Notes under the pieces: generated by a model
What the model was told of the DNA's origin: nothing
Seen by the model: only the letters and a program-made list of their open reading frames with translations
The model's database searches: none
In this document: positions 1 through 26,485 of the stretch, piece by piece
Position numbering within the stretch: the first letter of the stretch is position 1
Layout of the letters: every line of letters begins with the position of its first letter
Program-made: the position numbers and the translations under genes
Virus record (IMG/VR): IMGVR_UViG_3300020042_003126
Location: 1-28,295 of that record
Direction: 5' to 3' (one strand)
Source: a virus
Taxonomy: Duplodnaviria; Caudoviricetes
DNA length: 28,295 nucleotides

Positions 1-265
1 CAGTATGAATGCAAATGATCTGAGTACATACACTATCATCCTGTATTGGCTGTAGTAATAGTAGATCATGCTGTAATAGGATAGGCTCAACAGTCTCTAG
101 GATACTATTGATATCTGCATAATTCTTCTTAAAGTGGGGATTAGTAGCATTCTTGTGTACTTTACCGATTAGTTGCTTAGCTTGGTGTAGCCTCACATAG
201 AAGGGAGCAGGCTGCTGCTCAACCTCCTTAGGCTTTACAGCCTTAGTTGTTGTTTTAGTTTCCAT
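1..265 (-). CDS. erf: ERF-family single-strand annealing recombinase (5' part; runs off the window edge)
   Basis: Not in the ORF track. Manual translation from ATG at 265: METKTTTKAVKPKEVEQQPAPFYVRLHQAKQLIGKVHKNATNPHFKKNYADINSILETVEPILLQHDLLLLQPIQ... The KNATNPHFK-x-YADI motif is typical of ERF. Confidence 0.85.
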   Translation of the reverse strand, partial: METKTTTKAVKPKEVEQQPAPFYVRLHQAKQLIGKVHKNATNPHFKKNYADINSILETVEPILLQHDLLLLQPIQDDSVCTQIICIHT

Positions 266-285
266 GGTTAGTTATTAATTGTTTA

Positions 286-1002: not shown

Positions 1003-3323
1003 ATTTTAGTTATTTTAAACCATCGGCCTGCTGCACTTCTGCCCTTGTCAAAGTGGTAACCTTTAAACTTGCAATATTCAGAGACCATCTTAAGATACCT
1101 CTGTGCATTGAGATCATGCCATCCTCCTGTATATGTTTGGAAGTCCTGAATGGATACGTTATTATAGTGCAGTACATCCATTGTGATATTCCCCTCTATA
1201 GCGTAATCATAGAACTCCTTATTAGTAGCTGAAATAAACCTCTTATCATCTGCATTAATAGCTATTGCTTTTACAAGTCCTAGAGTTAAGAATTTCTGCA
1301 GGTTAGATATCATATAATTATCAAAGATCATCCAATCAACCACAGTCCAGTGATCAAACAATAACCTACCGTACTCATCTAGTGGGTTACGTTGAGCATT
1401 AAAGTACTGATTGAATTCTATTTCGTGCCTTCTCCTATCATGGCTTCCACCTGCCCCACCTATCACATAGTTGGTAGTAATGACGATCTTAGGGCTTCTC
1501 TCAAATGGAATAAAGATCTCATCTTTGTTTTTTCTGTTTACTGTTATCCCTTCTGATATCAAACTAAATAGCTGCTCAAAGTCAAAGTTCTTTTTAACAT
1601 CATCAAAGGCCAGTATTTGACTATCTAAGTTCACCCTCTGATAAACAAAGTCTGACTTCTGAGGGTTAAATGCTTTACCATCTATTTTGACTATGTTTCT
1701 AATCTTACCTATAGCTGTAAGCACTAAACTTTTACCACTCCCTCCATTAGGGTTATCATCTATTTCCTGATCATTAAAAATAATTGCTTTCTGATCTGTT
1801 TTATCTTTGTAGGTATGAAGTAAATAACCTAGGGTAGTCTCTAAGGCATTAACCCTCTGCTCATCATCAGCAGATACTTTGCTTACAAAGCTCTTAAAAT
1901 CATTTTCAATAGTAGGAGTAGGTTTGTAGTCCCTATCAATTATCTGCCTATCCCAAATGTACCCATCTATATCAATGTACGGTACTATATCTATCTTATT
2001 CTTAGTAATCTTAACTACTCCATTACGATAAGGTATGAAGCTCACATCCTTAGTATCCTGCAGCATCATTAAGCCGATAGGCTCTAGCATAGATAAGTGG
2101 CCATCTGTAAAGAGGTAAGGTGACTTACTGCAGTAGTTCCAAACTTCCACTTGCTTCTGCTTCATTAGATAAGCTAAGACAAAATCCTTCACCTGGTCCA
2201 CTGAAGATAGATTAACTTTATTCTCTATTACCCTTACAAATGTAGGTTTCTCTGATCTCTCAGGATAATACTTGTTAAACCCATATTTGTACAGGAAATC
2301 TCTATACTTCATAGGATCTACACTAACCCCCTTCTTATCACTAAAAGTCCAAAATACATCCTCACTATTAGCTACATCCTTCTTTACATCCTCTACCACA
2401 TCAGGCTTAATATCTAATTGCTTAGATATATCACCAGGGGAGATACCCTCTTTTAGTTTTGACCTTACCTTTAAGATGGTTTCTTTATCCTCAAAGTACT
2501 TAGTAGACTTATTAGCACTTTTGTAAGCAGATCCTACAGCTGTATTGATTTCTATTTGTGTGAAGTCCTTAGCACTATATTGGTGCAGGTAAAGTTTAGC
2601 AGTATTTTCACTTATGCCATACTCAGCAAAGCAGCAGGCCACCTTGAACACCCAAATGTTTCTACCATTAGAAACTTCTCCATGATTAAACTTCATGATG
2701 TTCTCAATTATATTAGCTTCATTAGTCATTGGTAGCACCGGCACCCTTTCAAATGAGCTGTGGCCTTTCTCCTCTTCTATCAAATCAAATACCTCAGCAT
2801 TTAGATTAATGTAAGCAGTAGGATCATAAGACTCAAAGCACACTCTGCTAACATTACAGCTACTAGCATCAAAGTAATCACTATCAATAAACTCCTGAAA
2901 CGCTTTAAACCTTCTCTTATGTGTAAATTTATCTGATGCTGGTATCTTTATCACACATTTTAGCCCTTTACCTGATGGTGATATAAATATCATAAACACA
3001 TTAGGGCACTCCATTAGTCTAGCCTTCTCAGCTTTCATTACTTTACTGCTAGGGTAGTCATCAAAGTCTAAAATACAAAGCCCTGAGTGCTCAATAAGGC
3101 CATTATCATTACGTTCATTAAAGGTCCCATTAAACATGATAGCCCTGAGGCTGTTCTTTAGGCTGCTGTATGCAGGATCATCCTCCTTCATAGCTCTAAG
3201 GGCAGTGATCTTATCAATAAGCTCAGGGTAGCCCTCCTTTATCCTATTGTAAACATCTACTACATCCTGAATGTAGGGAGTTTCTTTGGAATTGAATAAG
3301 GACTTAAATACAGATATCTTCAT
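999..3323 (-). CDS. Primase (VirE_N/BT4734-like) - PriCT - SF3 (D5-like) helicase fusion
   Basis: N-terminal SGLCILDFD and FISPSGKGLK motifs; NGRN PriCT-like segment; C-terminal Walker A GGSGKS, Walker B LAFDDV and sensor ITTN. Confidence 0.85.
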   Translation of the reverse strand: MKISVFKSLFNSKETPYIQDVVDVYNRIKEGYPELIDKITALRAMKEDDPAYSSLKNSLRAIMFNGTFNERNDNGLIEHSGLCILDFDDYPSSKVMKAEKARLMECPNVFMIFISPSGKGLKCVIKIPASDKFTHKRRFKAFQEFIDSDYFDASSCNVSRVCFESYDPTAYINLNAEVFDLIEEEKGHSSFERVPVLPMTNEANIIENIMKFNHGEVSNGRNIWVFKVACCFAEYGISENTAKLYLHQYSAKDFTQIEINTAVGSAYKSANKSTKYFEDKETILKVRSKLKEGISPGDISKQLDIKPDVVEDVKKDVANSEDVFWTFSDKKGVSVDPMKYRDFLYKYGFNKYYPERSEKPTFVRVIENKVNLSSVDQVKDFVLAYLMKQKQVEVWNYCSKSPYLFTDGHLSMLEPIGLMMLQDTKDVSFIPYRNGVVKITKNKIDIVPYIDIDGYIWDRQIIDRDYKPTPTIENDFKSFVSKVSADDEQRVNALETTLGYLLHTYKDKTDQKAIIFNDQEIDDNPNGGSGKSLVLTAIGKIRNIVKIDGKAFNPQKSDFVYQRVNLDSQILAFDDVKKNFDFEQLFSLISEGITVNRKNKDEIFIPFERSPKIVITTNYVIGGAGGSHDRRRHEIEFNQYFNAQRNPLDEYGRLLFDHWTVVDWMIFDNYMISNLQKFLTLGLVKAIAINADDKRFISATNKEFYDYAIEGNITMDVLHYNNVSIQDFQTYTGGWHDLNAQRYLKMVSEYCKFKGYHFDKGRSAAGRWFKITKI

Positions 3324-3341
3324 GGTTAGTTAGTTGGGGTG

Positions 3342-3349
3342 TAAATATA
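3342..3349 (-). promoter_or_regulatory. Variant -7 element (TATATTTA) upstream of the primase-helicase
   Basis: One mismatch to TAnnTTTG; position relative to ATG similar to the erf promoter. Confidence 0.5.
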
Positions 3350-3363
3350 ATCATTATTTCTAT

Positions 3364-3543
3364 ATGACAACCTTATGACGCAAAATGACGCAAATTTATT
3401 ACCCTTGTCATAACTAATAACCATACTGCTATTGACTTTCAGCGTTTTTATGACGCAATGACGCAAAATAAAATAAAAAAAATTATTTAGAAAATGCAAA
3501 AAGTTACAGAGAGTGTTAATAAGAGAATGTGTCATTGCGTCAT
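3364..3543. repeat. Iteron-like cluster, putative replication origin
   Basis: ATGACGCA at 3375, 3385, 3450 and 3458, inverted at 3536-3543. Shorter ATGACA at 3364, inverted at 3406 and 3530. A-rich tract at about 3465-3495. Lies upstream of the primase-helicase. Confidence 0.7.
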
Positions 3544-3546
3544 GAA

Positions 3547-3903
3547 TTAGTAGTAATTTCTTTTAATCTGCTCCTTAATACGATCCAATTTCTCCAGGTC
3601 ATTGCACTCTAGCACCTTCACTCTCAATGGCTTATAGTATCTAGGTGATGCAAACAGCCCTCGCAGCTCTAGTGTATAGTACAGATATAATGGATCTTTG
3701 ACTTTGTACCAAGCGTCATGATTAGCTATGCCATGAATGACAGTGCTATGACTCTGATTGAACAGTGCCCCTATCTCTGTTAGTGGCATCCCTTGATTGC
3801 GTAGCAGTGCATAGAGGTAGTACCTTTTGTAAATGTACTGTCGTAGTCTACTCTTTTTTGTGAGCTCATGTTTTACAATATACTCCTTTATCTGATCTAT
3901 CAT
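3547..3903 (-). CDS. DnaA C-terminal-like (TrpR-type) HTH DNA-binding protein
   Basis: PLTEIGALFNQSHSTVIHG matches the DnaA domain IV signature (SL..IG..F.GRDHTTV.H). Confidence 0.7.
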   Translation of the reverse strand: MIDQIKEYIVKHELTKKSRLRQYIYKRYYLYALLRNQGMPLTEIGALFNQSHSTVIHGIANHDAWYKVKDPLYLYYTLELRGLFASPRYYKPLRVKVLECNDLEKLDRIKEQIKRNYY

Positions 3904-4142
3904 GATAGTAGCTTAGGGTTTACTGATTTGAATAGCTCACTCTGACTATCTATTAACCCCACTGCATTGATATAGTCAATCTCTACCTTTGCACTGGCTA
4001 TGATGGTACTGCTCAGCTGAGCTATTGCTTTAGCCTTATCCACCTCTTGAGCTACCTGCTCAGTTGTTAGCCCATCATCTGATAATCTCTCTAATGCCAT
4101 GAATATGTGATCACGCAAATCACTTAGTTTGTTGTTTGCCAT
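3900..4142 (-). CDS. Hypothetical phage protein, typically paired with the upstream HNH-like gene
   Basis: NKLSDLRDHIFMALERL...EVDKAKAIAQLS pattern; overlaps the HNH gene end. Confidence 0.7.
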   Translation of the reverse strand: MANNKLSDLRDHIFMALERLSDDGLTTEQVAQEVDKAKAIAQLSSTIIASAKVEIDYINAVGLIDSQSELFKSVNPKLLS

Positions 4143-4731
4143 TTGTTTTGTTTTTTAGTTTACTGGTTAATTTCATTAATTCCTGTAGCTCAGCAGGATA
4201 TCTTTGTATAGTATTACGAGCCATATTTTCCTTTCTGCTTATTACTTGTAGGTTGTTTAGTTCACAATTCATAAAGTTCCCATCTAAAAAAATTACTACA
4301 GATCCTGCAGGTATCTCACCATTTGCCTGAGTCCATACGTACCTATGCAGCAGCTCCCAGTGGCTATCTTTTATTTTGATATATTGGTAAAGTCTACCTG
4401 TTTTATCAGCTCTTACATGGATGGTCCCAATGGGTTGAGTATTGTATGGCTTATTGCCTTTCTTAAACATAGTGGGTGCTACGGCAGTGTATACCTCAGC
4501 AGCCATTTTTTTACCTTTGTTTACTGGTATATGCCCTGGCTTAAATTGGGTAGCTTGATTGCTTTTAGTACCTACATTGTACCTACCACTGGCTGCAGTC
4601 TTAAGATAGTCAGGATCCTTATGTATCTTGTATCTGTAAGCTATGTTATACACCTGTGATATTGTTAGTCCTAGATCCTTAGCTATTTCAGCTGTGCTTT
4701 CAAATGGGTAGCGTTTAATTACCTGGATCAT
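4120..4731 (-). CDS. HNH-fold protein with N-terminal HTH and FKxG-x-x-P-x-N repeats (probably degenerate active site)
   Basis: LHRYVW...GEIPAG.VVIFLDGN..NCELNNLQVISRKENM HNH_3 pattern; STAEIAKDLGLTISQVY HTH. Confidence 0.75.
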   Translation of the reverse strand: MIQVIKRYPFESTAEIAKDLGLTISQVYNIAYRYKIHKDPDYLKTAASGRYNVGTKSNQATQFKPGHIPVNKGKKMAAEVYTAVAPTMFKKGNKPYNTQPIGTIHVRADKTGRLYQYIKIKDSHWELLHRYVWTQANGEIPAGSVVIFLDGNFMNCELNNLQVISRKENMARNTIQRYPAELQELMKLTSKLKNKTNGKQQTK

Positions 4732-4873
4732 ACTGCTCTACTTTTAGTATTAGTTTAGGCCACATAGCCATTATCATTATCGCATGATCTCTATCCAGTG
4801 CCTCTAAGATCCTGATGCCTATCCTCTTTTTTCCACCTTCAAAATAGTTGTAGGTTACTTTATAGCGTTTCAT
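4715..4873 (-). CDS. Small hypothetical protein (52 aa)
   Basis: Below the ORF-track cutoff. MKRYKVTYNYFEGGKKRIGIRILEALDRDHAIMIMAMWPKLILKVEQYDPGN; ATGA overlap with the upstream gene; fills the gap. Confidence 0.6.
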   Translation of the reverse strand: MKRYKVTYNYFEGGKKRIGIRILEALDRDHAIMIMAMWPKLILKVEQYDPGN

Positions 4874-5043
4874 TTATCTTCTTTTATAGGGTTAAGGTAA
4901 TCATCCTGTGCATCTAGGTAGTCTAGGTACAGCTCCAGGTTGAAGCTGCCACCTTTATCTCCCTCTGTTGACTGCTCTCGCCACCATAGCATCTTACGCT
5001 TAAGGCTATAGGTAGTATATGTGTAGTTGTTTTCAGTATTCAT
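4870..5043 (-). CDS. Small hypothetical early protein
   Basis: Track ORF 4870..5064; start more likely at 5043 (MNTENN), which minimises overlap. Confidence 0.55.
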   Translation of the reverse strand: MNTENNYTYTTYSLKRKMLWWREQSTEGDKGGSFNLELYLDYLDAQDDYLNPIKEDK

Positions 5044-5335
5044 AGTAAGCATCTTTATCAGCATCTTCTAAATCTTGATAACCCCATCCTTCAGGATCTT
5101 CATAAGCTCTATAAACTACTAGTTCTGCACAGGTTAAATGCTCCTGTTTAGTCAAAGTGTAGGGTAATATCACCCCATGATCATTCCTACTGCAGTATAA
5201 TAGCTCTGCTTCTATTTCTCCTAGTGCTAGAAAGGTGTATCTCCACTCACTAGTGTAGCATATACCTCCATCCTCAGAGTAAAAGCATACGTTTGCGAGC
5301 CCTGGGCTCTTGTATTCAATGTCTATTTCGTTCAT
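5033..5335 (-). CDS. Acidic hypothetical early protein (100 aa)
   Basis: ORF in the early operon with TAAACC-ATG start context. Confidence 0.6.
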   Translation of the reverse strand: MNEIDIEYKSPGLANVCFYSEDGGICYTSEWRYTFLALGEIEAELLYCSRNDHGVILPYTLTKQEHLTCAELVVYRAYEDPEGWGYQDLEDADKDAYYEY

Positions 5336-5338
5336 GGT

Positions 5339-5428
5339 TTAAAGATTAGTTATAAAACAAAGTAAATAAATTCCTACCCATAGGGCTGTAAAGGCAATGA
5401 TGCCCTCTATTAAATCAGAAGCTCTCAT
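5339..5428 (-). CDS. Tiny single-TM membrane protein (29 aa)
   Basis: MRASDLIEGIIAFTALWVGIYLLCFITNL; fills the gap between neighbouring ORFs. Confidence 0.5.
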   Translation of the reverse strand: MRASDLIEGIIAFTALWVGIYLLCFITNL

Positions 5429-5591
5429 CTAGTCCTAGTTTTTCGATTAGTATTAAAATAGTAGTGTAAGCAAGTTGAGCTCTTTGGGTACCAGCATCGT
5501 CATATCCGAAGGCTGTGCTCATGTCATTGTAGTGATCCTTCAACTCGTTGTAGTAGTCTAGGATATTCTCTGTTAATTTTTGATCATTCAT
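5415..5591 (-). CDS. First gene of the early operon, hypothetical (58 aa)
   Basis: MNDQKLTENILDYYNELKDHYNDMSTAFGYDDAGTQRAQLAYTTILILIEKLGLDESF; directly behind a TATATTTG promoter. Confidence 0.65.
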   Translation of the reverse strand: MNDQKLTENILDYYNELKDHYNDMSTAFGYDDAGTQRAQLAYTTILILIEKLGLDESF

Positions 5592-5619
5592 AATTGGTTA
5601 GTTTAATAAGTTAGTGAAG

Positions 5620-5627
5620 CAAATATA
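5620..5627 (-). promoter_or_regulatory. Early promoter -7 element (TATATTTG)
   Basis: Perfect TAnnTTTG heading the block of small early genes. Confidence 0.7.
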
Positions 5628-5672
5628 CGTAGTTATTTTTAATATGTTCACAAGTTTATAAAAGTTTTCGTT

Positions 5673-5691
5673 ATCAATAATCATTCTAAAT
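5673..5691. promoter_or_regulatory. Imperfect palindrome resembling a Flavobacteriia Fur box
   Basis: ATCAATAATCATTCTAAAT matches 15/19 positions of ATTTAGAATTATTCTAAAT (consensus recalled from memory); right half-site perfect. Confidence 0.35.
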
Positions 5692-5747
5692 AAGGAATAG
5701 CCTTAATTTATACATCAGAAGTAAGGTGATAACCTTAAATTTAAGGC

Positions 5748-5792
5748 AAAAAAATAGCCCCCCTGCCAAACTAACCAAAGATACAGAGGGGC
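5748..5792 (-). terminator. Intrinsic terminator ending the lysis operon and the sRNA
   Basis: 9-bp GC-rich stem followed by UAUUUUUUU. One U-G wobble pairs only on the minus strand. Confidence 0.8.
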
Positions 5793-5813
5793 CCGGTCTC
5801 TAATACGAGACCT
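5748..5813 (-). ncRNA. Candidate two-hairpin small RNA with a loop antisense to early-gene start regions
   Basis: A-GGUCUC-GUAUUA-GAGACC-GG-GCCCCUCUG-UAUCUUUGGUUAGUUUGG-CAGGGGGGC-UAUUUUUUU. Upstream TAAGTTTG -7 element, with TTG 20 nt further upstream. Confidence 0.65.
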
Positions 5814-5817
5814 AGTG

Positions 5818-5848
5818 CAAACTTACAAATTAAATTTGTGACTATCAA
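5818..5848 (-). promoter_or_regulatory. Host-type promoter for the candidate sRNA
   Basis: TTG (5846-5848), 20-nt spacer, TAAGTTTG (5818-5825, overlapping the phosphoesterase stop codon). Predicted +1 is A at 5813. Confidence 0.6.
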
Positions 5849-6698
5849 TGTATTTAGTAGTTTTTCTATCTCCTGTAGTTTCTCTTACACATTTTATAGT
5901 AAGGATCCTACCACCAAGGGGCTTAATGGGAGCTCCACGTTCAACGTGCCACCCTTGTGATCCATCACCGTACTCTTCCTTATAGGTACCTGTAAGCATG
6001 AGGTGTATATGTTTCTGCTTAAGAATGTAGCCTGATTGTGGATGGCTTTCTACTGTATCCCTCACATCATTTCTGCTGCTATTTTCGTGTATATGGCCCA
6101 TTGTAAAAACTTCAAAGTTCTCATAAGTTTCTAGTGCCCTGGTTAAATTGATAGCACCTTTAGTAACTATACCACCTCCACCTGATCCATGGAAATATTT
6201 AATTTTAGTAGTAAAAGAGGATGTGCTACGGCCTGCAGGTGATTGCTTAATGATTAGCCACCCACCATAGCCACCTGTCTGTACATTAGATCCTGCTTTA
6301 AAGTTTAGGATGTCTACAAATCTCTGCAGTATGTCAGTCTCTTGGAATTTAATTATAGCAGTTTCGTGGTTGCCATAACCTATGAGTTTTAAGATGGATG
6401 CATAGGGCAGGAACCAATCTACTGCAGTCTCTACTATAGAGTCTAAGTACTTAGCATTATTGTGCTCAGGTCTGATGTCTGACTTATTACGTCTGTTATC
6501 TCCCCTCCCTTGCATTAAGCAGAACATATCACCATTTATCATCACAGGTATATCCTCAGCTAGGCAATAGTCTAGGTGCCTCTTTAACATCTCCCTATCA
6601 CAGTGAGGGTTATCCCAGTGCAAATCACTAAGCATAGCTATCCTTACATCACTGCCTTCTAGTAAAAGCTCGTGAACATTCTTAGAGTGTCTTATCAT
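5823..6698 (-). CDS. Calcineurin-like metallophosphoesterase
   Basis: SDLHWD, NGDMF, GNHE, FHG and GHIH metal-binding motifs all present. Confidence 0.85.
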   Translation of the reverse strand: MIRHSKNVHELLLEGSDVRIAMLSDLHWDNPHCDREMLKRHLDYCLAEDIPVMINGDMFCLMQGRGDNRRNKSDIRPEHNNAKYLDSIVETAVDWFLPYASILKLIGYGNHETAIIKFQETDILQRFVDILNFKAGSNVQTGGYGGWLIIKQSPAGRSTSSFTTKIKYFHGSGGGGIVTKGAINLTRALETYENFEVFTMGHIHENSSRNDVRDTVESHPQSGYILKQKHIHLMLTGTYKEEYGDGSQGWHVERGAPIKPLGGRILTIKCVRETTGDRKTTKYIDSHKFNL

Positions 6699-7156
6699 TA
6701 TTTTTTAAATGGGTTGTATAATTTATCCAGGATCCAAAGTATAAAGAATAGAGCTATTCCACAGCCAAAGCCCCAAAAAAATAATTTCCAGTTTGTTTTA
6801 GCTTTAGTTAGCTGCACCTCTTTACGCTGCTCTTTAGCTTCCTTATATATGTACTTATATTTCAGTACATCCTGCTTTAATACCTTAGTCTTATACCTGT
6901 ACTCTATCCTAGTCTGATACCTGGTCTTAGGCATCTCTAGGATCTTAATAATAGTGTCTTTAGTCGTTATAAATTTCTCCCATACTATGGTATCACCAAC
7001 TATTACAGCCACACTATCTATAGTATTAATCTTTATCGTATCATTAGCTATACTTAGGCCATACTTAACTGCTTTCTTATAGTGGTATTGTGCTTTCTTA
7101 GCGTCTGAACAGCTAAATAGTAGGGATAGTACTATAAGGGGTAGTAAGTGTCTCAT
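6698..7156 (-). CDS. Unimolecular spanin candidate (lipoprotein with C-terminal TM)
   Basis: Lipobox-like signal MRHLLPLIVLSLLFS-C; C-terminal hydrophobic helix LFFWGFGCGIALFFILWIL; follows the endolysin. Confidence 0.65.
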   Translation of the reverse strand: MRHLLPLIVLSLLFSCSDAKKAQYHYKKAVKYGLSIANDTIKINTIDSVAVIVGDTIVWEKFITTKDTIIKILEMPKTRYQTRIEYRYKTKVLKQDVLKYKYIYKEAKEQRKEVQLTKAKTNWKLFFWGFGCGIALFFILWILDKLYNPFKK

Positions 7157-7800
7157 AAGGCTTCTAACATTGCTATCATTTTAGGACAAGGGTAGATGTC
7201 ACTCTTATCCTTTCTTACACTATTGTGTGTAAATATACCACTTTCTCCCCTTAAAGCACGTTTGTCTATATCAAAGATGGTAGTAAAGTAAGTGCGAGGT
7301 ATGCTATAAGTATCACAAAGGTAAACAAGCAGCTGCCGAGTAGACTCAATCTGAGCATCTGTATAAGACTGCCAGTATATATGCCCTTTGTATTTCTGAT
7401 CTAAAAAAGTAACTTTAGTATAGTCTACCTTGCCACCTACATAGTTGTAATAATAGCCATTCCTTTTAGTAAGTGGCCCATAGTTACAGATCTCTATACC
7501 TACAGATATTTTATCTAAACTTTGATAAGAAACTCCTGCCTCTGTGAATACTTCCTGCTTGAGGCCCAGGTGATAAGCCCAATGTTTAGAACTAAAGCAC
7601 TGTACAATTGTACCATTAGCACCTATGATAAAAGCAGTGGCTACCTTACCCTCTTTGTTGTTAAAAAACCTAGCTACAGAAACTGCATCAGGTCCACCTG
7701 CTGTATGGTGTAGGTATATTTGTTTTTTTGGGTGAGTCTCTTGTATATACTGGTTACTATCCAGCCTCTCCTGTACTATCTTTGTTAGATCTAACTCCAT
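7153..7800 (-). CDS. Endolysin, N-acetylmuramoyl-L-alanine amidase (Amidase_2)
   Basis: IYLHHTAG, SVGIEI, YTDAQI and THNSVRKDKSD zinc-amidase motifs. Confidence 0.9.
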   Translation of the reverse strand: MELDLTKIVQERLDSNQYIQETHPKKQIYLHHTAGGPDAVSVARFFNNKEGKVATAFIIGANGTIVQCFSSKHWAYHLGLKQEVFTEAGVSYQSLDKISVGIEICNYGPLTKRNGYYYNYVGGKVDYTKVTFLDQKYKGHIYWQSYTDAQIESTRQLLVYLCDTYSIPRTYFTTIFDIDKRALRGESGIFTHNSVRKDKSDIYPCPKMIAMLEAL

Positions 7801-8248
7801 CTATATCTCCTTTTATTAGTTTAGCCCTTGCAAACAGATTGCGTAGAGCAGTCCATATATCTATATTTTTAACTGCCTTATAATTTTCACTTATAGAGAT
7901 GACTTCTAGGCTTACAAGCACTAGAGATAGTATCTTTGTGACCATTAAAGGTACAGAAAAGAATTTTAAAATTATCTGATTTAATATAAAGCTATCTATT
8001 AGGTACGTTAAAATAACAGCCACCTCATATAGAAATAACTTAGACACAATAGCTGATAAGCCACGTGATGTGATTGGTATTTTTAACTTTCTTGACTTCC
8101 ATATACCTGTAATAGTATCTACTATGATAGCAAAAGCTATAAGAAATAATATACCTGATATCGGTAAAAAGAATGAACCAATAACGGCTAAAAGTTGGAT
8201 GATATATTTATCAATGGTTAAGAGTAAGATAGATAGTTGTAGTTTCAT
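7757..8248 (-). CDS. Holin (phage holin family 4-like)
   Basis: Multiple TM segments, DTITGIWKS...ITSRGL and E..SISEN motifs; upstream of the endolysin. Confidence 0.8.
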   Translation of the reverse strand: MKLQLSILLLTIDKYIIQLLAVIGSFFLPISGILFLIAFAIIVDTITGIWKSRKLKIPITSRGLSAIVSKLFLYEVAVILTYLIDSFILNQIILKFFSVPLMVTKILSLVLVSLEVISISENYKAVKNIDIWTALRNLFARAKLIKGDIDGVRSNKDSTGEAG

Positions 8249-10153: not shown

Positions 10154-10504
10154 TTAATCGTATATTGAGGTGCCTACTGGCCCACTTACCACCATTCTAC
10201 CCTCTTCTATCACTACTCCTGTGGATTGTGCAATAGTTAAAGGTAGTACATAGGGTACTGAGCTCTGATAAATCTGATATATAAACTGCCCTTGCAATAA
10301 TGGAATATCTACAGGCTCATTAAGCACAAAGAGATTGTATCTCTCAGGGTATAAGCTAATATCTGCAGTTGTGAATAGCTCAGTAACTGATAGAGTATTC
10401 ATTTCATTAGTGAAAGCAAATAGATAATGAGGGGTGGGTACAGTAGTAACCTCTGTTAATGTTAAAACTATTTGATTGACTACCCCCTGTTCAATGTATA
10501 TCAT
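10154..10504 (-). CDS. Virion structural protein (116 aa; head completion candidate)
   Basis: Start revised to 10504 (MIYIEQG), directly after the late promoter motif; the track's extension runs into a terminator. Confidence 0.6.
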   Translation of the reverse strand: MIYIEQGVVNQIVLTLTEVTTVPTPHYLFAFTNEMNTLSVTELFTTADISLYPERYNLFVLNEPVDIPLLQGQFIYQIYQSSVPYVLPLTIAQSTGVVIEEGRMVVSGPVGTSIYD

Positions 10505-13157: not shown

Positions 13158-13712
13158 ATGATAAATTTATTAGGTAGGGATATCCCTAACAAAGTGGATG
13201 AGTTGACTATAGAACAGTTCGAGCTCATTACAGAAATCAGTAATAACCAAGAGATTGATCCTATAGATAGGTACCTGCAGATATTCACAGCTCTAGGGAT
13301 ACCTGAAAAGGAATTTTTTGACTATGATGTGGCCGATTTCATTACTATAGTAAAGGAGTTTAATGATGGAAATAATAATACTAAGCCATCTGATCCAGTT
13401 GGTACAATAGAGCTAGATGGTTATTCTTATTCTGCAGAGTTAAAGCTAACAGTAAGAGAGACAAAGATAATAGAAAAGATAGCTATCAATAAACCTAAGG
13501 GATACATCTCTGATATACTAGCTGTTATGTTTAAGAGAAATGATCTTACTAATGCTGAGCACTATGCTGAGGCACATCTTAAGCTAAAAGCAAAACTAAT
13601 CAAAGGCCTTACGGCAGATATAGCCATCCCATATCTTATGTTTATAGCCAACAAAATCAAAGCACAAGTGCCTGAAGCAAATGAAACTATTACTACCGAA
13701 GCAGTGGAGTGA
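13158..13712 (+). CDS. Hypothetical protein, tail-assembly-chaperone-like, paralog 1
   Basis: IPNKVDELTIEQF N-terminus; similar to the next ORF. Confidence 0.6.
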   Translation: MINLLGRDIPNKVDELTIEQFELITEISNNQEIDPIDRYLQIFTALGIPEKEFFDYDVADFITIVKEFNDGNNNTKPSDPVGTIELDGYSYSAELKLTVRETKIIEKIAINKPKGYISDILAVMFKRNDLTNAEHYAEAHLKLKAKLIKGLTADIAIPYLMFIANKIKAQVPEANETITTEAVE

Positions 13713-14421
13713 GATAACTGTTGATAAGTTTATAGAAATATATGAGATAGATAAAGAGCTAGGACCTTCACACTATAATAGTGAGATACTCTCTATCATC
13801 ACAGATGAGCCTATAGAGACTATTGAGGATTTAGAGATAGATATCCTTAATGCTTATATAGACCAGTGCAAATGGGCCCTGTCTCAACCATCTAAACAAT
13901 ACAAGCAAAAGCTTTTTGGGATGCAGCTAAAGCCATTATCTAAGCTAACTGTGTTTGAGTATATAGACCTAGATCACTATTTTACTAATAACTATGTTAC
14001 TAATATAGATAAGATCTGTGCCATCCTTTACAGGCAATCTAAAGTTAATAGATGGGGTGAGGAGATACTAGAGCCTTATGAGTATGATATTAGTGTAAGA
14101 GCTGAGAAGTTTCTAGACCTACCAATTACAGATGTGTATGGTATTATCAATGAGTTTATAAAGTTTAGGGAGAAGTTTCTAGATATATACGCTAATCTTT
14201 TTGGGGAGGTAGATGGTGAAATAACTGCAGAAGAGAGAGATACCCTAGATGCTGATGAGATAAAAAATATTGAGCAGGAAAAAAAAGAGAGTAAGTGGAG
14301 CTGGGAGCGTATGCTGTATGGCCTTACAGGTGGTGATATTACTAAGACAGAAGCAGTGGGATCACTACCCCTTACCTATGTTTTCAATGTCTTAGGCATG
14401 AAAAAAGAATTAGACATCTAA
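13681..14421 (+). CDS. Hypothetical protein, tail-assembly-chaperone-like, paralog 2
   Basis: LPKQWSEITVDKF N-terminus; C-terminal KWSW..MLYGLTGGDITK.E.V..LPL motif. Confidence 0.6.
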   Translation: MKLLLPKQWSEITVDKFIEIYEIDKELGPSHYNSEILSIITDEPIETIEDLEIDILNAYIDQCKWALSQPSKQYKQKLFGMQLKPLSKLTVFEYIDLDHYFTNNYVTNIDKICAILYRQSKVNRWGEEILEPYEYDISVRAEKFLDLPITDVYGIINEFIKFREKFLDIYANLFGEVDGEITAEERDTLDADEIKNIEQEKKESKWSWERMLYGLTGGDITKTEAVGSLPLTYVFNVLGMKKELDI

Positions 14422-25406: not shown

Positions 25407-25548
25407 CCAAAATTATAAAACTGTAATAAAATAAAACCCATAGTCCTGCTGCCTTACTAGCCCACTCATACTCTAATCTAAACAAAGCATAACCAGTGAA
25501 CATGCCACAGAATAATGCTAAAGTACTAATAAATCGGCTCACTCTCAT
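25384..25548 (-). CDS. Small two-TM membrane protein (54 aa)
   Basis: Start revised to 25548 (MRVSRF), abutting the late motif; two hydrophobic stretches. Confidence 0.55.
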   Translation of the reverse strand: MRVSRFISTLALFCGMFTGYALFRLEYEWASKAAGLWVLFYYSFIILDEYENKE

Positions 25549-26059
25549 ACCTATATTGTAATTCATTTAAATTTTGTTTTATCTCCTTGATCAGATAGTA
25601 GGCTGAAGTAGTAGTTATTCCAAAGTATTGAGCCATGCTTTTAGCAGTAACATAGCCCCTATCAATGTATGCCTCATAAACTATCTTCTGCACCTTATCT
25701 GTTATCTCATTCCTGTAGATCTCTATAAGTGCTTTATTAAAAGAATAGATCCTATCCTCCCTTAGCTTGTAGTATAGATCATCATTATCAATAGGCTCAG
25801 TTAATGGATGCTCAATGGCTGTGATCCTATCATCCTTATTACTCTTGGAGCATGACCATAACACCTGATACTTGATAGTATTTAGCAGATAGCTCTTCAC
25901 CTTGCCAGGATCCCCATCTATATTAATCACATGAAGGTAGGAGTTATTAATGACTGTATCAGCGTCAATATAGCTGCCCATCTTTTTTAGAAAGTAGGTA
26001 GTATAGGCTCTCACCTCAGCATAGTTGCTACTAATGTAGTTGTCTAAGGCTCTTCTCAT
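25526..26059 (-). CDS. RNA polymerase sigma-factor-like protein (ECF size), probable late regulator
   Basis: 177 aa from MRRALDNY. Region-2-like DADTVINNSYL...KSYLLNTIK and C-terminal HTH TAKSMAQYFGITTTSAYYLIKEIK; sits at the early/late junction. Confidence 0.6.
   Translation of the reverse strand: MRRALDNYISSNYAEVRAYTTYFLKKMGSYIDADTVINNSYLHVINIDGDPGKVKSYLLNTIKYQVLWSCSKSNKDDRITAIEHPLTEPIDNDDLYYKLREDRIYSFNKALIEIYRNEITDKVQKIVYEAYIDRGYVTAKSMAQYFGITTTSAYYLIKEIKQNLNELQYRYESEPIY
25549..25560 (-). promoter_or_regulatory. Late promoter motif variant TACAATATAGGT (terminase operon)
   Basis: 11/12 match abutting ATG; embedded in the 3' end of the sigma-like gene. Confidence 0.65.
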
Positions 26060-26246
26060 ACCATGTCTCAAAATCCTTGGACCATATTCTCCTCCTTGTA
26101 GAGGCACAGAAGCACTCCCTCGGTTGTCTACCCTCATACTTCTCTCTAATCTTATATAATTTTATGCAAGAGTGCTTAGAGTACCTTGTACTATCAGGCA
26201 TCTTAGCTATTGCATCAATCAGATCTATCTCAGCTTGTTCAAACAT
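26031..26246 (-). CDS. Small Cys-containing hypothetical protein
   Basis: Likely start MFEQAEID at 26246; HSC...ECFC motif. Confidence 0.6.
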   Translation of the reverse strand: MFEQAEIDLIDAIAKMPDSTRYSKHSCIKLYKIREKYEGRQPRECFCASTRRRIWSKDFETWYEKSLRQLH

Positions 26247-26473
26247 TCCTCTAGTATAAAAGCAAGCAGTGCAGCCTGACAAGCTAGGATAAAATCAAAG
26301 GTACAAAATATAGTAAGCCAAAAAGCCACACATTTAATACATCCTAGTGCAGAGTGTATATGTATGGCTGTTGGGTACTTTGTGTTATACTTAAATAATC
26401 TATCAAAGGTTGCCTGTAAAGGTTCAAAATTAACAAACCACCAGGATAAAGGTATAAGGGCTAGTAAAGTCAT
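26225..26473 (-). CDS. Small membrane protein with CxxC (DUF1360-like)
   Basis: Hydrophobic, LGCIKCVAFW motif. Confidence 0.6.
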   Translation of the reverse strand: MTLLALIPLSWWFVNFEPLQATFDRLFKYNTKYPTAIHIHSALGCIKCVAFWLTIFCTFDFILACQAALLAFILEECLNKLR

Positions 26474-26477
26474 GGCC

Positions 26478-26485
26478 CAAATATA
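26478..26485 (-). promoter_or_regulatory. Host-type -7 element (TATATTTG), 4 nt before ATG
   Basis: TATATTTG-GGCC-ATG suggests a leaderless transcript for the sigma-factor operon. Confidence 0.6.

Follow-up and report, generated by a model that had tools for sequence, protein, structure and literature searches.

The nearest published systems to the element described here are the small RNAs FopS and GibS of Bacteroides and the c4 RNA of phage P1. c4 is released from a precursor by RNase P. CI RNA of satellite phage P4 is an RNA-only immunity factor that pairs with leader sequences of the replication operon; it is cut from the leader of the operon that it controls and triggers premature termination. 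In phage T4, RegA is a protein repressor of early mRNAs that acts via a tag in the initiation region. RegB of the same lytic phage, a nuclease, lowers the phage's own early mRNAs via a short tag in the initiation region (PMC1702504), and early-gene shut-off in host-polymerase-dependent lytic phages is known mainly as protein solutions of this kind. The c4 RNA of P1 and P7 (RF01695) is described as acting in trans, via its loop sequences, on the ribosome-binding region of an mRNA of the same phage, with a specificity that differs between the related phages (PMC12197685); it has one target operon, that of the antirepressor, and belongs to a temperate immunity circuit with a protein repressor.

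FopS and GibS of B. thetaiotaomicron are chromosomal, have 14 paralogues, are bound by RbpB and are aimed at glycan-uptake targets of the host (PMC11697453; PMC7366714). FopS blocks translation by pairing beside the start codons of first cistrons (PMC11697453), and together the two RNAs indicate that blocking of the start region by an sRNA works in Bacteroidota (PMC11697453; PMC7366714). They have a primary-sigma promoter of the TAnnTTTG type and carry the seed in an unstructured 5′ portion. Initiation of translation in this phylum is reported to rely on adenines at −3, −6, and −11 to −15 and on an open structure (PMC7366714; PMC6847099).

The unit analyzed here, which lies behind the late lysis genes of a phage, resembles FopS/GibS in its proposed mechanism, as judged by prediction and co-variation, and its predicted promoter shares with theirs a conserved box. 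It differs from them in being phage-encoded, present as a single copy in the record and aimed at the phage's own early transcripts; its seed has been replaced clade by clade along with its targets, and in this phage the seed sits in the terminator loop, behind a 5′ hairpin. Like c4, it is phage-encoded and has a loop predicted to be complementary to the phage's own ribosome-binding regions; unlike c4, it addresses three separate transcripts, has a far simpler fold and no match in Rfam, and occurs in a phage in which no antirepressor, repressor, or integrase was found. The contrast with P4 CI is one of position and reach, the unit ending at 5748, upstream of the early promoter box (5627–5620), with a box and terminator of its own, and covering start codons. 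RegB and RegA are proteins, whereas here the reader of the tag appears to be RNA. A plain intrinsic terminator has the same GC-rich stem and U tract, but its loop is short and varies freely, unlike the 16–18-nt loop found here. No description of this element was found in the literature, mostly freely accessible papers, and its seed strings are absent from the searchable supplements of PMC10690425. On sequence evidence, we consider the element real and most likely a self-directed, multi-target antisense RNA.

The window, by which we mean the whole stretch of DNA analyzed, is a virus record of 28,295 bp from a small uncultured phage of freshwater type, estimated to be 98% complete, with 37.8% G+C, and bears nearly all of its genes on the minus strand. 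PHROGs labels include terminases, portal, amidase, holin, ERF, exonuclease, SSB, HNH, and a ParB-like protein; no integrase, repressor, or antirepressor was labeled among the 42 window proteins, and the integrase (PF00589) and HTH_3 repressor (PF01381) families are absent from 5 of 5 complete relatives (controls, 14/14). The host is probably a member of the Bacteroidota, as suggested by the TAnnTTTG boxes and the absence of Shine-Dalgarno sites. The ParB-like protein is 64% identical to its counterpart in Flavobacterium phage lillamy9-1, and no close cultured relative was found via the phosphoesterase, primase, capsid, exonuclease, SSB, or ParB. Ten matches were obtained in 185,579 prokaryote genomes, all of them on short contigs of assorted bins and none clearly a prophage. 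The late unit that leads to the small RNA begins at about 10504, and no other strong minus-strand terminator occurs from 10548 down to the following features:

5823–6698, minus strand: metallophosphoesterase-type gene (phrog_7339, E 6.5e-13), which closes the lysis-containing late unit and served as the marker for finding loci of the family
5846–5848, minus strand: TTG within Ile-Asp codons, at −33; conservation lacking
5818–5825, minus strand: −7 promoter box TAAGTTTG, of the TAnnTTTG consensus (PMC9723704)
5748–5813, minus strand: predicted small RNA, 66 nt, fold z −4.76; kept in 51 distinct clade-A junctions
5795–5812, minus strand: 5′ hairpin of 6 bp; sequence variable, structure kept
5756–5793, minus strand: terminator hairpin with arms 5793–5783 and 5766–5756 and loop 5782–5767
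5768–5778, minus strand: seed, complementary to the leader tag and located in the terminator loop; opening cost 1.6 kcal/mol
5748–5754, minus strand: U7 tract; sequence conserved

The preliminary description had proposed, from the letters alone, a promoter, two hairpins, and a U tract in this interval, and every element was located where it had placed them. The RNA is taken to span from +1 to the end of the U tract, with +1 put at 5813 because the Bacteroidota promoter box is considered to occupy −12 to −5 (PMC9723704). The TAA of the box TAAGTTTG is at the same time the stop codon of the late gene 6698–5823. What had been called a full promoter holds for the −7 box, which is conserved, but not for the TTG (5848–5846), separated here from the box (5825–5818) by 20 nt: it recurs at that distance in 21% of 28 clade-A upstream sequences and in 0% of most other families. 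A −33 TTG is also described as absent genome-wide in F. johnsoniae (PMC7366714). The 66-nt unit folds with an MFE of −32.1 kcal/mol (z −4.76), a stability equaled by 0 of 200 shuffles. The unusually large loop noted earlier was confirmed, although the terminator stem of 9 bp can be extended by two G-U pairs to 11 bp, which leaves a loop of 16–18 nt and not always 18. The 5′ hairpin (5795–5812) probably protects the 5′ end of the RNA.

A comparison against Rfam, as the preliminary description had proposed, returned no family: 0 of 4227 matched the window at E up to 1, and none reached its gathering score in 5 loci of other seed families. Two RNA runs were returned with small shares (0.12 and 0.07); against positions 3000–8000 they gave 16 and 3 low-depth contigs of relatives, some spanning the unit, in which ends, strand, and level are unreadable. 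As a separate observation, the 3′ arm of the terminator (5745–5767, minus strand) has an alternative pairing, mostly of G-U type, with the U tract and a GCC behind it, which might permit read-through; the GCC is common, not universal, among relatives.

Five scans with the upstream phosphoesterase yielded 269 loci, 256 of them with a locatable stop codon. At least 100 nt past this stop was available in 247 loci (window included), and a terminator was present in 203 of these, accompanied by the box in 202. Removal of duplicates left 204 distinct junctions, which belong to related phages and are not independent. The box lies within 23 nt of the stop codon in 164 of the 165 junctions with a terminator, as against 3 of the 39 without one, and in 124 of the 165 units it shares bases with the last stop codon. 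Conservation within the RNA sets in, with a purine, 4–6 nt past the box in seven of eight subfamilies and 3 nt past it in the eighth, and the spacers ahead of it vary freely, a pattern that fits a transcription start. Within clade A (51 junctions), a 13-nt core of the loop is invariant in 51 of 51; a 14-nt loop pattern has at least 120 exact matches in viral contigs. The clade-A terminator stem is paired in 99.5% of 192 cells, five of its eight pairs never vary, and the single two-sided change is G-C to A-U, in 4 rows. The sequence of the clade-A 5′ hairpin falls into several unrelated types, but each of the 26 distinct units folds one; among distinct 5′ parts, 16 of 21 have a z below −2, and two of the misses came from shortened input.

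The predicted partners of the loop, and a candidate weaker site, are the following:

5594–5604, minus strand: target 1 (net −12.2 kcal/mol, rank 1 of 41), an 11-nt tag within the first early gene's leader
5415–5591, minus strand: first early gene, 58 aa, no family; own box at 5627–5620
265–273, minus strand: target 2 (net −11.7 kcal/mol, rank 2 of 41), a tag that takes in the A of the ERF start codon
265 to the contig end, minus strand: ERF gene (PHROGs); own box at 293–286
3323–3331, minus strand: target 3 (net −11.0 kcal/mol, rank 3 of 41), a tag that takes in the A of the primase-helicase start codon
999–3323, minus strand: primase-helicase gene (BT4734-like_N and PriCT_1 domains, primase/helicase relatives); own box at 3349–3342
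5344–5351, minus strand: candidate weak fourth site with one G-U pair before the second early gene; net −5.4 kcal/mol, within background

The loop had been described as complementary to the starts of three early genes, with a genome-wide motif count and a calculation of interaction energies suggested as checks, and all three points are borne out: matches lie at 5594–5604, 3323–3331, and 265–273, sense copies of the motif occur solely at those three start codons, and the three targets rank 1–3 of 41 gene starts. The ranking uses the net energy after the cost of opening both partners; the next-best start reaches −7.7 kcal/mol, as against −11.0 kcal/mol for rank 3. Across both strands of the 28,295 bp, AACTAACCA has exactly four copies, three at start codons (5595–5603, 3323–3331, and 265–273, minus strand) and the fourth, antisense, within the terminator loop; the 11-nt match at 5594–5604 is the sole match of at least 11 nt between the unit and the gene strand. 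By chance, 0.24 exact copies would be expected on the gene strand, at least three arose in 1 of 300 shuffles, and at least three of 39 start windows held the motif in 0 of 20,000 leader shuffles; AACTAACCA was picked after the fact, so weight rests on the cross-phage tests and not on these chance figures. A search that tolerates one mismatch shows no genome-wide enrichment of the motif (14 copies, 10.6 expected). Each target gene is the first behind its own TATATTT(G/A) box (5627, 3349, 293), with a predicted +1 at 5615, 3337, and 281 and predicted leaders of 24, 14, and 16 nt, respectively. These leaders are already open (opening cost 0.5–0.8 kcal/mol), and the predicted duplexes are short and A/U-rich. 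Clade-A ERF leaders retain the tag. In an observation apart from the pairing, at least two unrelated-looking proteins of 56–59 aa alternate behind the same tagged leader as first early gene (5415–5591 in the window) among clade-A relatives, and the window's own protein resembles a hybrid of the two types.

Distant relatives carry, at the same junction, units of 35–70 nt that end in an ordinary terminator with a short loop and differ in their 5′ stretch (families B, C, D1, D2, D3, and E), and in most of these non-A units the 5′ stretch contains the complement of a start codon. The stress that the preliminary description laid on a loop-presented seed therefore does not extend beyond clade A, the only clade whose terminator loop holds the seed; in the other families the seed is a 5′ stretch, unpaired in B, C, D2, and D3. 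At least six distinct seeds occur across the family.

A test in relatives, also proposed earlier, of whether seed and leader motif vary together gave a positive answer: seed and leader tag change together between clades. Exact cores were counted in 264 promoter-proximal early start windows from 112 distinct loci with at least 4.5 kb downstream. Tag A was found in 64 of 93 windows of its own clade (27 of 27 loci) and in 0 of 171 of other clades, and tag B in 20 of 37 own and 0 of 227 foreign windows; for tags C, D, and E, whose cores were selected after the leaders had been inspected, the counts were 6/16 vs. 0/248, 30/50 vs. 7/214, and 3/5 vs. 3/259, respectively. The exact-core test failed for family D3 (own 0/8, foreign 10/256). 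In 28 loci without a junction unit, tags A, B, C, D, and E were found in 0 of 55 windows; one locus of the unit-less kind, L047, is nested in clade A on a marker tree, and the tag is missing there as well. A threshold of 8 matching nt proved too loose for the U-rich seeds C, D, and E. In an energy test over 2397 start windows, which used whole single-stranded regions and no chosen core, the own seed was the best partner of promoter-proximal early starts in six of seven families, with z of −2.2 (A) and −2.5 (B) and values near zero at late starts; in family E the own seed was not the row minimum.

The matrix for ERF leaders is block-diagonal, the A seed reaching −14.4 kcal/mol on A leaders and −3.3 to −7.4 kcal/mol on the others. 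The ERF protein of L052, a clade-A phage, is 67% like that of family B and 31% like that of family A, yet its gene has the A tag; by these similarities, L052, whose RNA is of the clade-A type, is a natural swap in which a foreign-type ERF gene bears the local tag. On a quick tree of 111 of the 112 loci, each family forms one or two clusters, and the evidence from co-variation thus amounts to about five or six seed switches, not to hundreds of independent cases. Compensation at a finer scale was not found within these loci: the seed of L221 is altered and its leaders are unchanged, and in L214 and L215 a leader is altered and the seed is unchanged. An apparent compensatory pair in L221 was discarded; the altered leader actually belongs to L214 and L215. 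A count for G-U asymmetry in clade A gave 12 wobble-type and 34 other changes, and the full core is missing in 6 of 41 long-leader promoter windows of this clade, mostly those of the primase.

Several of the loci show further features. In L061, L230, L215, L218, and L214, a G-run hairpin is repeated before family-B early leaders (ERF and others), where it replaces the promoter box; it is possibly a processing or recombination element. About 100 nt past the phosphoesterase stop of L285, which had entered the exact-core count as a locus with no unit, lies a further seed type with a 9-nt complement to its own promoter-proximal start. Box-to-terminator units of about 80 nt occur in the early region of L381, L081, and L285, about 3150, 3390, and 4330 nt downstream of the phosphoesterase stop, respectively; in these phages without a junction unit, no match of the 80-nt units to the leaders was found. 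In D1 units (L073 and others), the seed can fold into a small hairpin with the anti-start CAU in its loop, which we take to resemble the anticodon loop of initiator tRNA and which may be a mere by-product of complementarity.

The clade-A tag is strand-polar, with 52 distinct sense contexts at early starts, 12 other early-side sense contexts (the second early gene accounts for 7, at its positions +10 to +17), 0 late-side contexts, and 3 antisense contexts outside the unit. The inverted copy always lies unpaired between box and terminator, except for a weak hairpin in D1. The region just upstream of the primase and that of the late regulators contain the following features:

3547–3903, minus strand: stand-alone DnaA-domain-IV-like HTH gene (Pfam Bac_DnaA_C, E 1e-8), just upstream of the primase
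26473–26485, minus strand: leaderless start of a small membrane-type gene (box, 4 nt, ATG), without the tag
25526–26137, minus strand: sigma-like ORF, presumed late activator; its own protein has weak HTH matches only

The HTH gene accompanies the unit in 82 of 82 unit-bearing loci and occurs in 5 of 29 others. Its recognition helix is similar across clades with unrelated tags and varies inside clade A, where the tag is constant. The protein would be a poor reader of the tag, because the helix is alike across clades whose tags are unrelated; possibly it is a DnaA mimic or an origin binder.

The leaderless operon, which starts behind a fourth minus-strand box (26485), runs toward the sigma-like gene, with a spacing shared by clades A, D1, D2, and D3 that places the ATG at the same fifth base after the box as the predicted +1 of the RNA; its counterpart in B2 and C has its own box, a leader of 16–17 nt, and poor pairing. 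Positional counterparts of the sigma-like ORF, which are 12–17% identical to the window's ORF, match Sigma70_r2, above the cut-off in one of seven, and in Nonlabens phage P12024S the corresponding place is taken by a gene annotated as sigma-70 region 2. Elsewhere in the window, the motif AATATAGGT precedes late-gene starts (25556, 22959, 15784, 13123, and 10512, minus strand), often directly ahead of the ATG; it is a candidate late promoter or leader signal, common in clade A and rare in other families. The plus strand holds only two genes, related-looking ORFs of 184 and 246 aa without a family, at 13158–14421 within the structural module; they have their own TATATTTG box upstream and a leader without the tag.

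We consider it likely that the unit is an antisense RNA that acts in trans on leadered early transcripts and keeps their first cistrons from being translated; its role is more probably that of a lytic timer than immunity. The unit, its conservation, its target set, the co-variation, and the escape of the leaderless operon are all read from sequence, and we infer separate transcription, pairing in the cell, repression, and the timer role as follows. Host RNA polymerase with the Bacteroidota primary sigma factor would start the RNA at 5813 from the −7 box early in infection, and lysis transcripts that stop at this terminator may supply further copies of the loop in the late phase. The loop would pair over 9–12 nt with the tag at about −14 to +1 of the target genes, a tag that appears to be kept on the first gene of every leadered early transcript (first early gene, primase-helicase, and ERF). 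The duplex would cover the A-rich positions that Bacteroidota ribosomes use instead of a Shine-Dalgarno sequence, blocking initiation and probably speeding decay of the whole transcript. A stable RNA would accumulate, and the leaderless operon toward the sigma-like late activator would be unaffected. The net effect would most likely be a delayed brake, because the RNA would accumulate while the leaderless operon stays untouched: early, replication, and recombination proteins would be pulsed and then lowered as late expression begins. The co-repression proposed in the preliminary description stands insofar as conservation and co-variation point to a self-directed antisense RNA at early, replication, and recombination starts; that the RNA in turn lowers the expression of these genes is probable, the repression itself being predicted from the position of the pairing.

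The preliminary description had also offered immunity as a role. Under such a reading the pairing is the same, but a resident or first-arriving genome would make the RNA and silence its own early transcripts in a carrier state, or those of incoming phages with the same tag (superinfection exclusion), and seed families would be exclusion groups. The loop core that is invariant in 51 clade-A junctions and the clade-specific tags are what such a role would lead one to expect, as in the heteroimmunity of P1 and P7 by c4 (PMC12197685), and a host-type promoter would work without phage proteins. Early shut-off is nevertheless preferred because neither an integrase nor an HTH_3 repressor occurs in 5 of 5 complete relatives or among the 42 window proteins and because the transcript toward the sigma-like gene escapes; nor is any of the 10 matches in 185,579 prokaryote genomes prophage-like. 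We regard immunity or exclusion as rather unlikely, and such a role can coexist with a timer. It is unlikely that no separate RNA exists and that the seed works only from the 3′ terminus of the late lysis mRNA, intact or after cleavage, in late-to-early feedback. The overlap of the box with the last stop codon in 124 of 165 units, the missing −33 element, and the lack of another strong minus-strand terminator in the late unit from about 10504 agree with that reading, but the box shifts with insertions and is retained in 164 of 165 units, and conservation begins at the predicted +1. Pairing might instead help, by shielding short 5′ leaders from nucleases or by recruiting ribosomes; the target genes are needed in quantity, and some phage sRNAs are reported to activate, e.g., PreS on dnaN (bioRxiv 10.1101/2024.10.31.621285). 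Such help is very unlikely given a duplex that spans −14 to +1 and includes the start codon in most families, target leaders that are open already (0.5–0.8 kcal/mol), and the reported tuning of initiation by structure and key bases in the start region (PMC6847099).

Still less likely is a tag that acts as a DNA operator near early promoters and is recognized by a protein of the phage, for instance the DnaA-domain-IV-like HTH protein (3903–3547), with the loop copy as an extra site. All three targets lie directly behind promoter boxes and the HTH gene keeps company with the unit (82/82 vs. 5/29 loci), but the recognition helix is near-constant across clades with unrelated tags and variable in clade A, and the tag is strand-polar and includes the start codon in most families; the inverted copy, moreover, is always unpaired between box and terminator (weak hairpin in D1). 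That the true targets are host mRNAs with a generic Bacteroidota start context, which the phage leaders merely share, is even less probable: the C, D, and E seeds do mirror common A-rich start contexts and cross-react at 8 nt, and a FopS-like sequence is present in a phage, but the clade-A tag precedes an ATG only 0–14 times per genome, mostly no more often than a reversed control, in 41 genomes from the order of a Flavobacteriaceae bin, which may not be that of the true host. Judged by this rarity, the clade-A tag is not a generic start context; the 28 kb analyzed here hold it 3 times, and none of the 171 foreign phage leaders has it. The least probable reading is a plain terminator with a loop that fits the leaders fortuitously or because a nearby leader was copied neutrally, or else an antisense ORF start. 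The unit does terminate the late unit and the first target is only 170 nt distant; against this, an invariant loop stands next to a variable hairpin, further matches lie 2.5 and 5.5 kb off, and the co-variation is repeated. The antisense ORF, starting from the CAT, was rejected: its frames range from 2 to 71 codons and are not conserved, and the ATG is missing in 9 loci.

If the antisense timer is right, an abundant group of uncultured phages would solve early shut-off with an RNA of 35–70 nt directed at an entire early regulon. The six or more natural pairs of seed and tag provide built-in specificity controls, and the series would reveal the minimal duplex length that blocks initiation in Bacteroidota and would supply orthogonal translational switches for a tool-poor phylum. 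A broader idea, possible though doubtful, is an address code without a protein repressor, in which each lineage has one tag on all leadered early transcripts and one RNA to read it; acquired genes would be given the local tag, the late-activator operon would opt out by being leaderless, and the RNA would silence incoming phages with the same tag, the seed families being exclusion groups, defined by RNA, of lytic phages that occur together.

Look-alike units behind lysis genes in cultured phages make these predictions testable already. Eight named phage records were scanned de novo, and in four of them a box-to-terminator unit follows the lysis genes: P12024S (Nonlabens phage, about 10174–10244), tant8-1 (Flavobacterium phage, from about 40431), Leef_1, and LS06-2018-MD05. 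The pairing advantage of these candidate units lies within about 1 standard deviation of background. In a separate observation on named records, L394 (OP947161), filed under Rhodobacteraceae phages, shows promoter boxes of the Bacteroidota type, leaders rich in A, and an ERF gene similar to that of family B, and its host label may be wrong.
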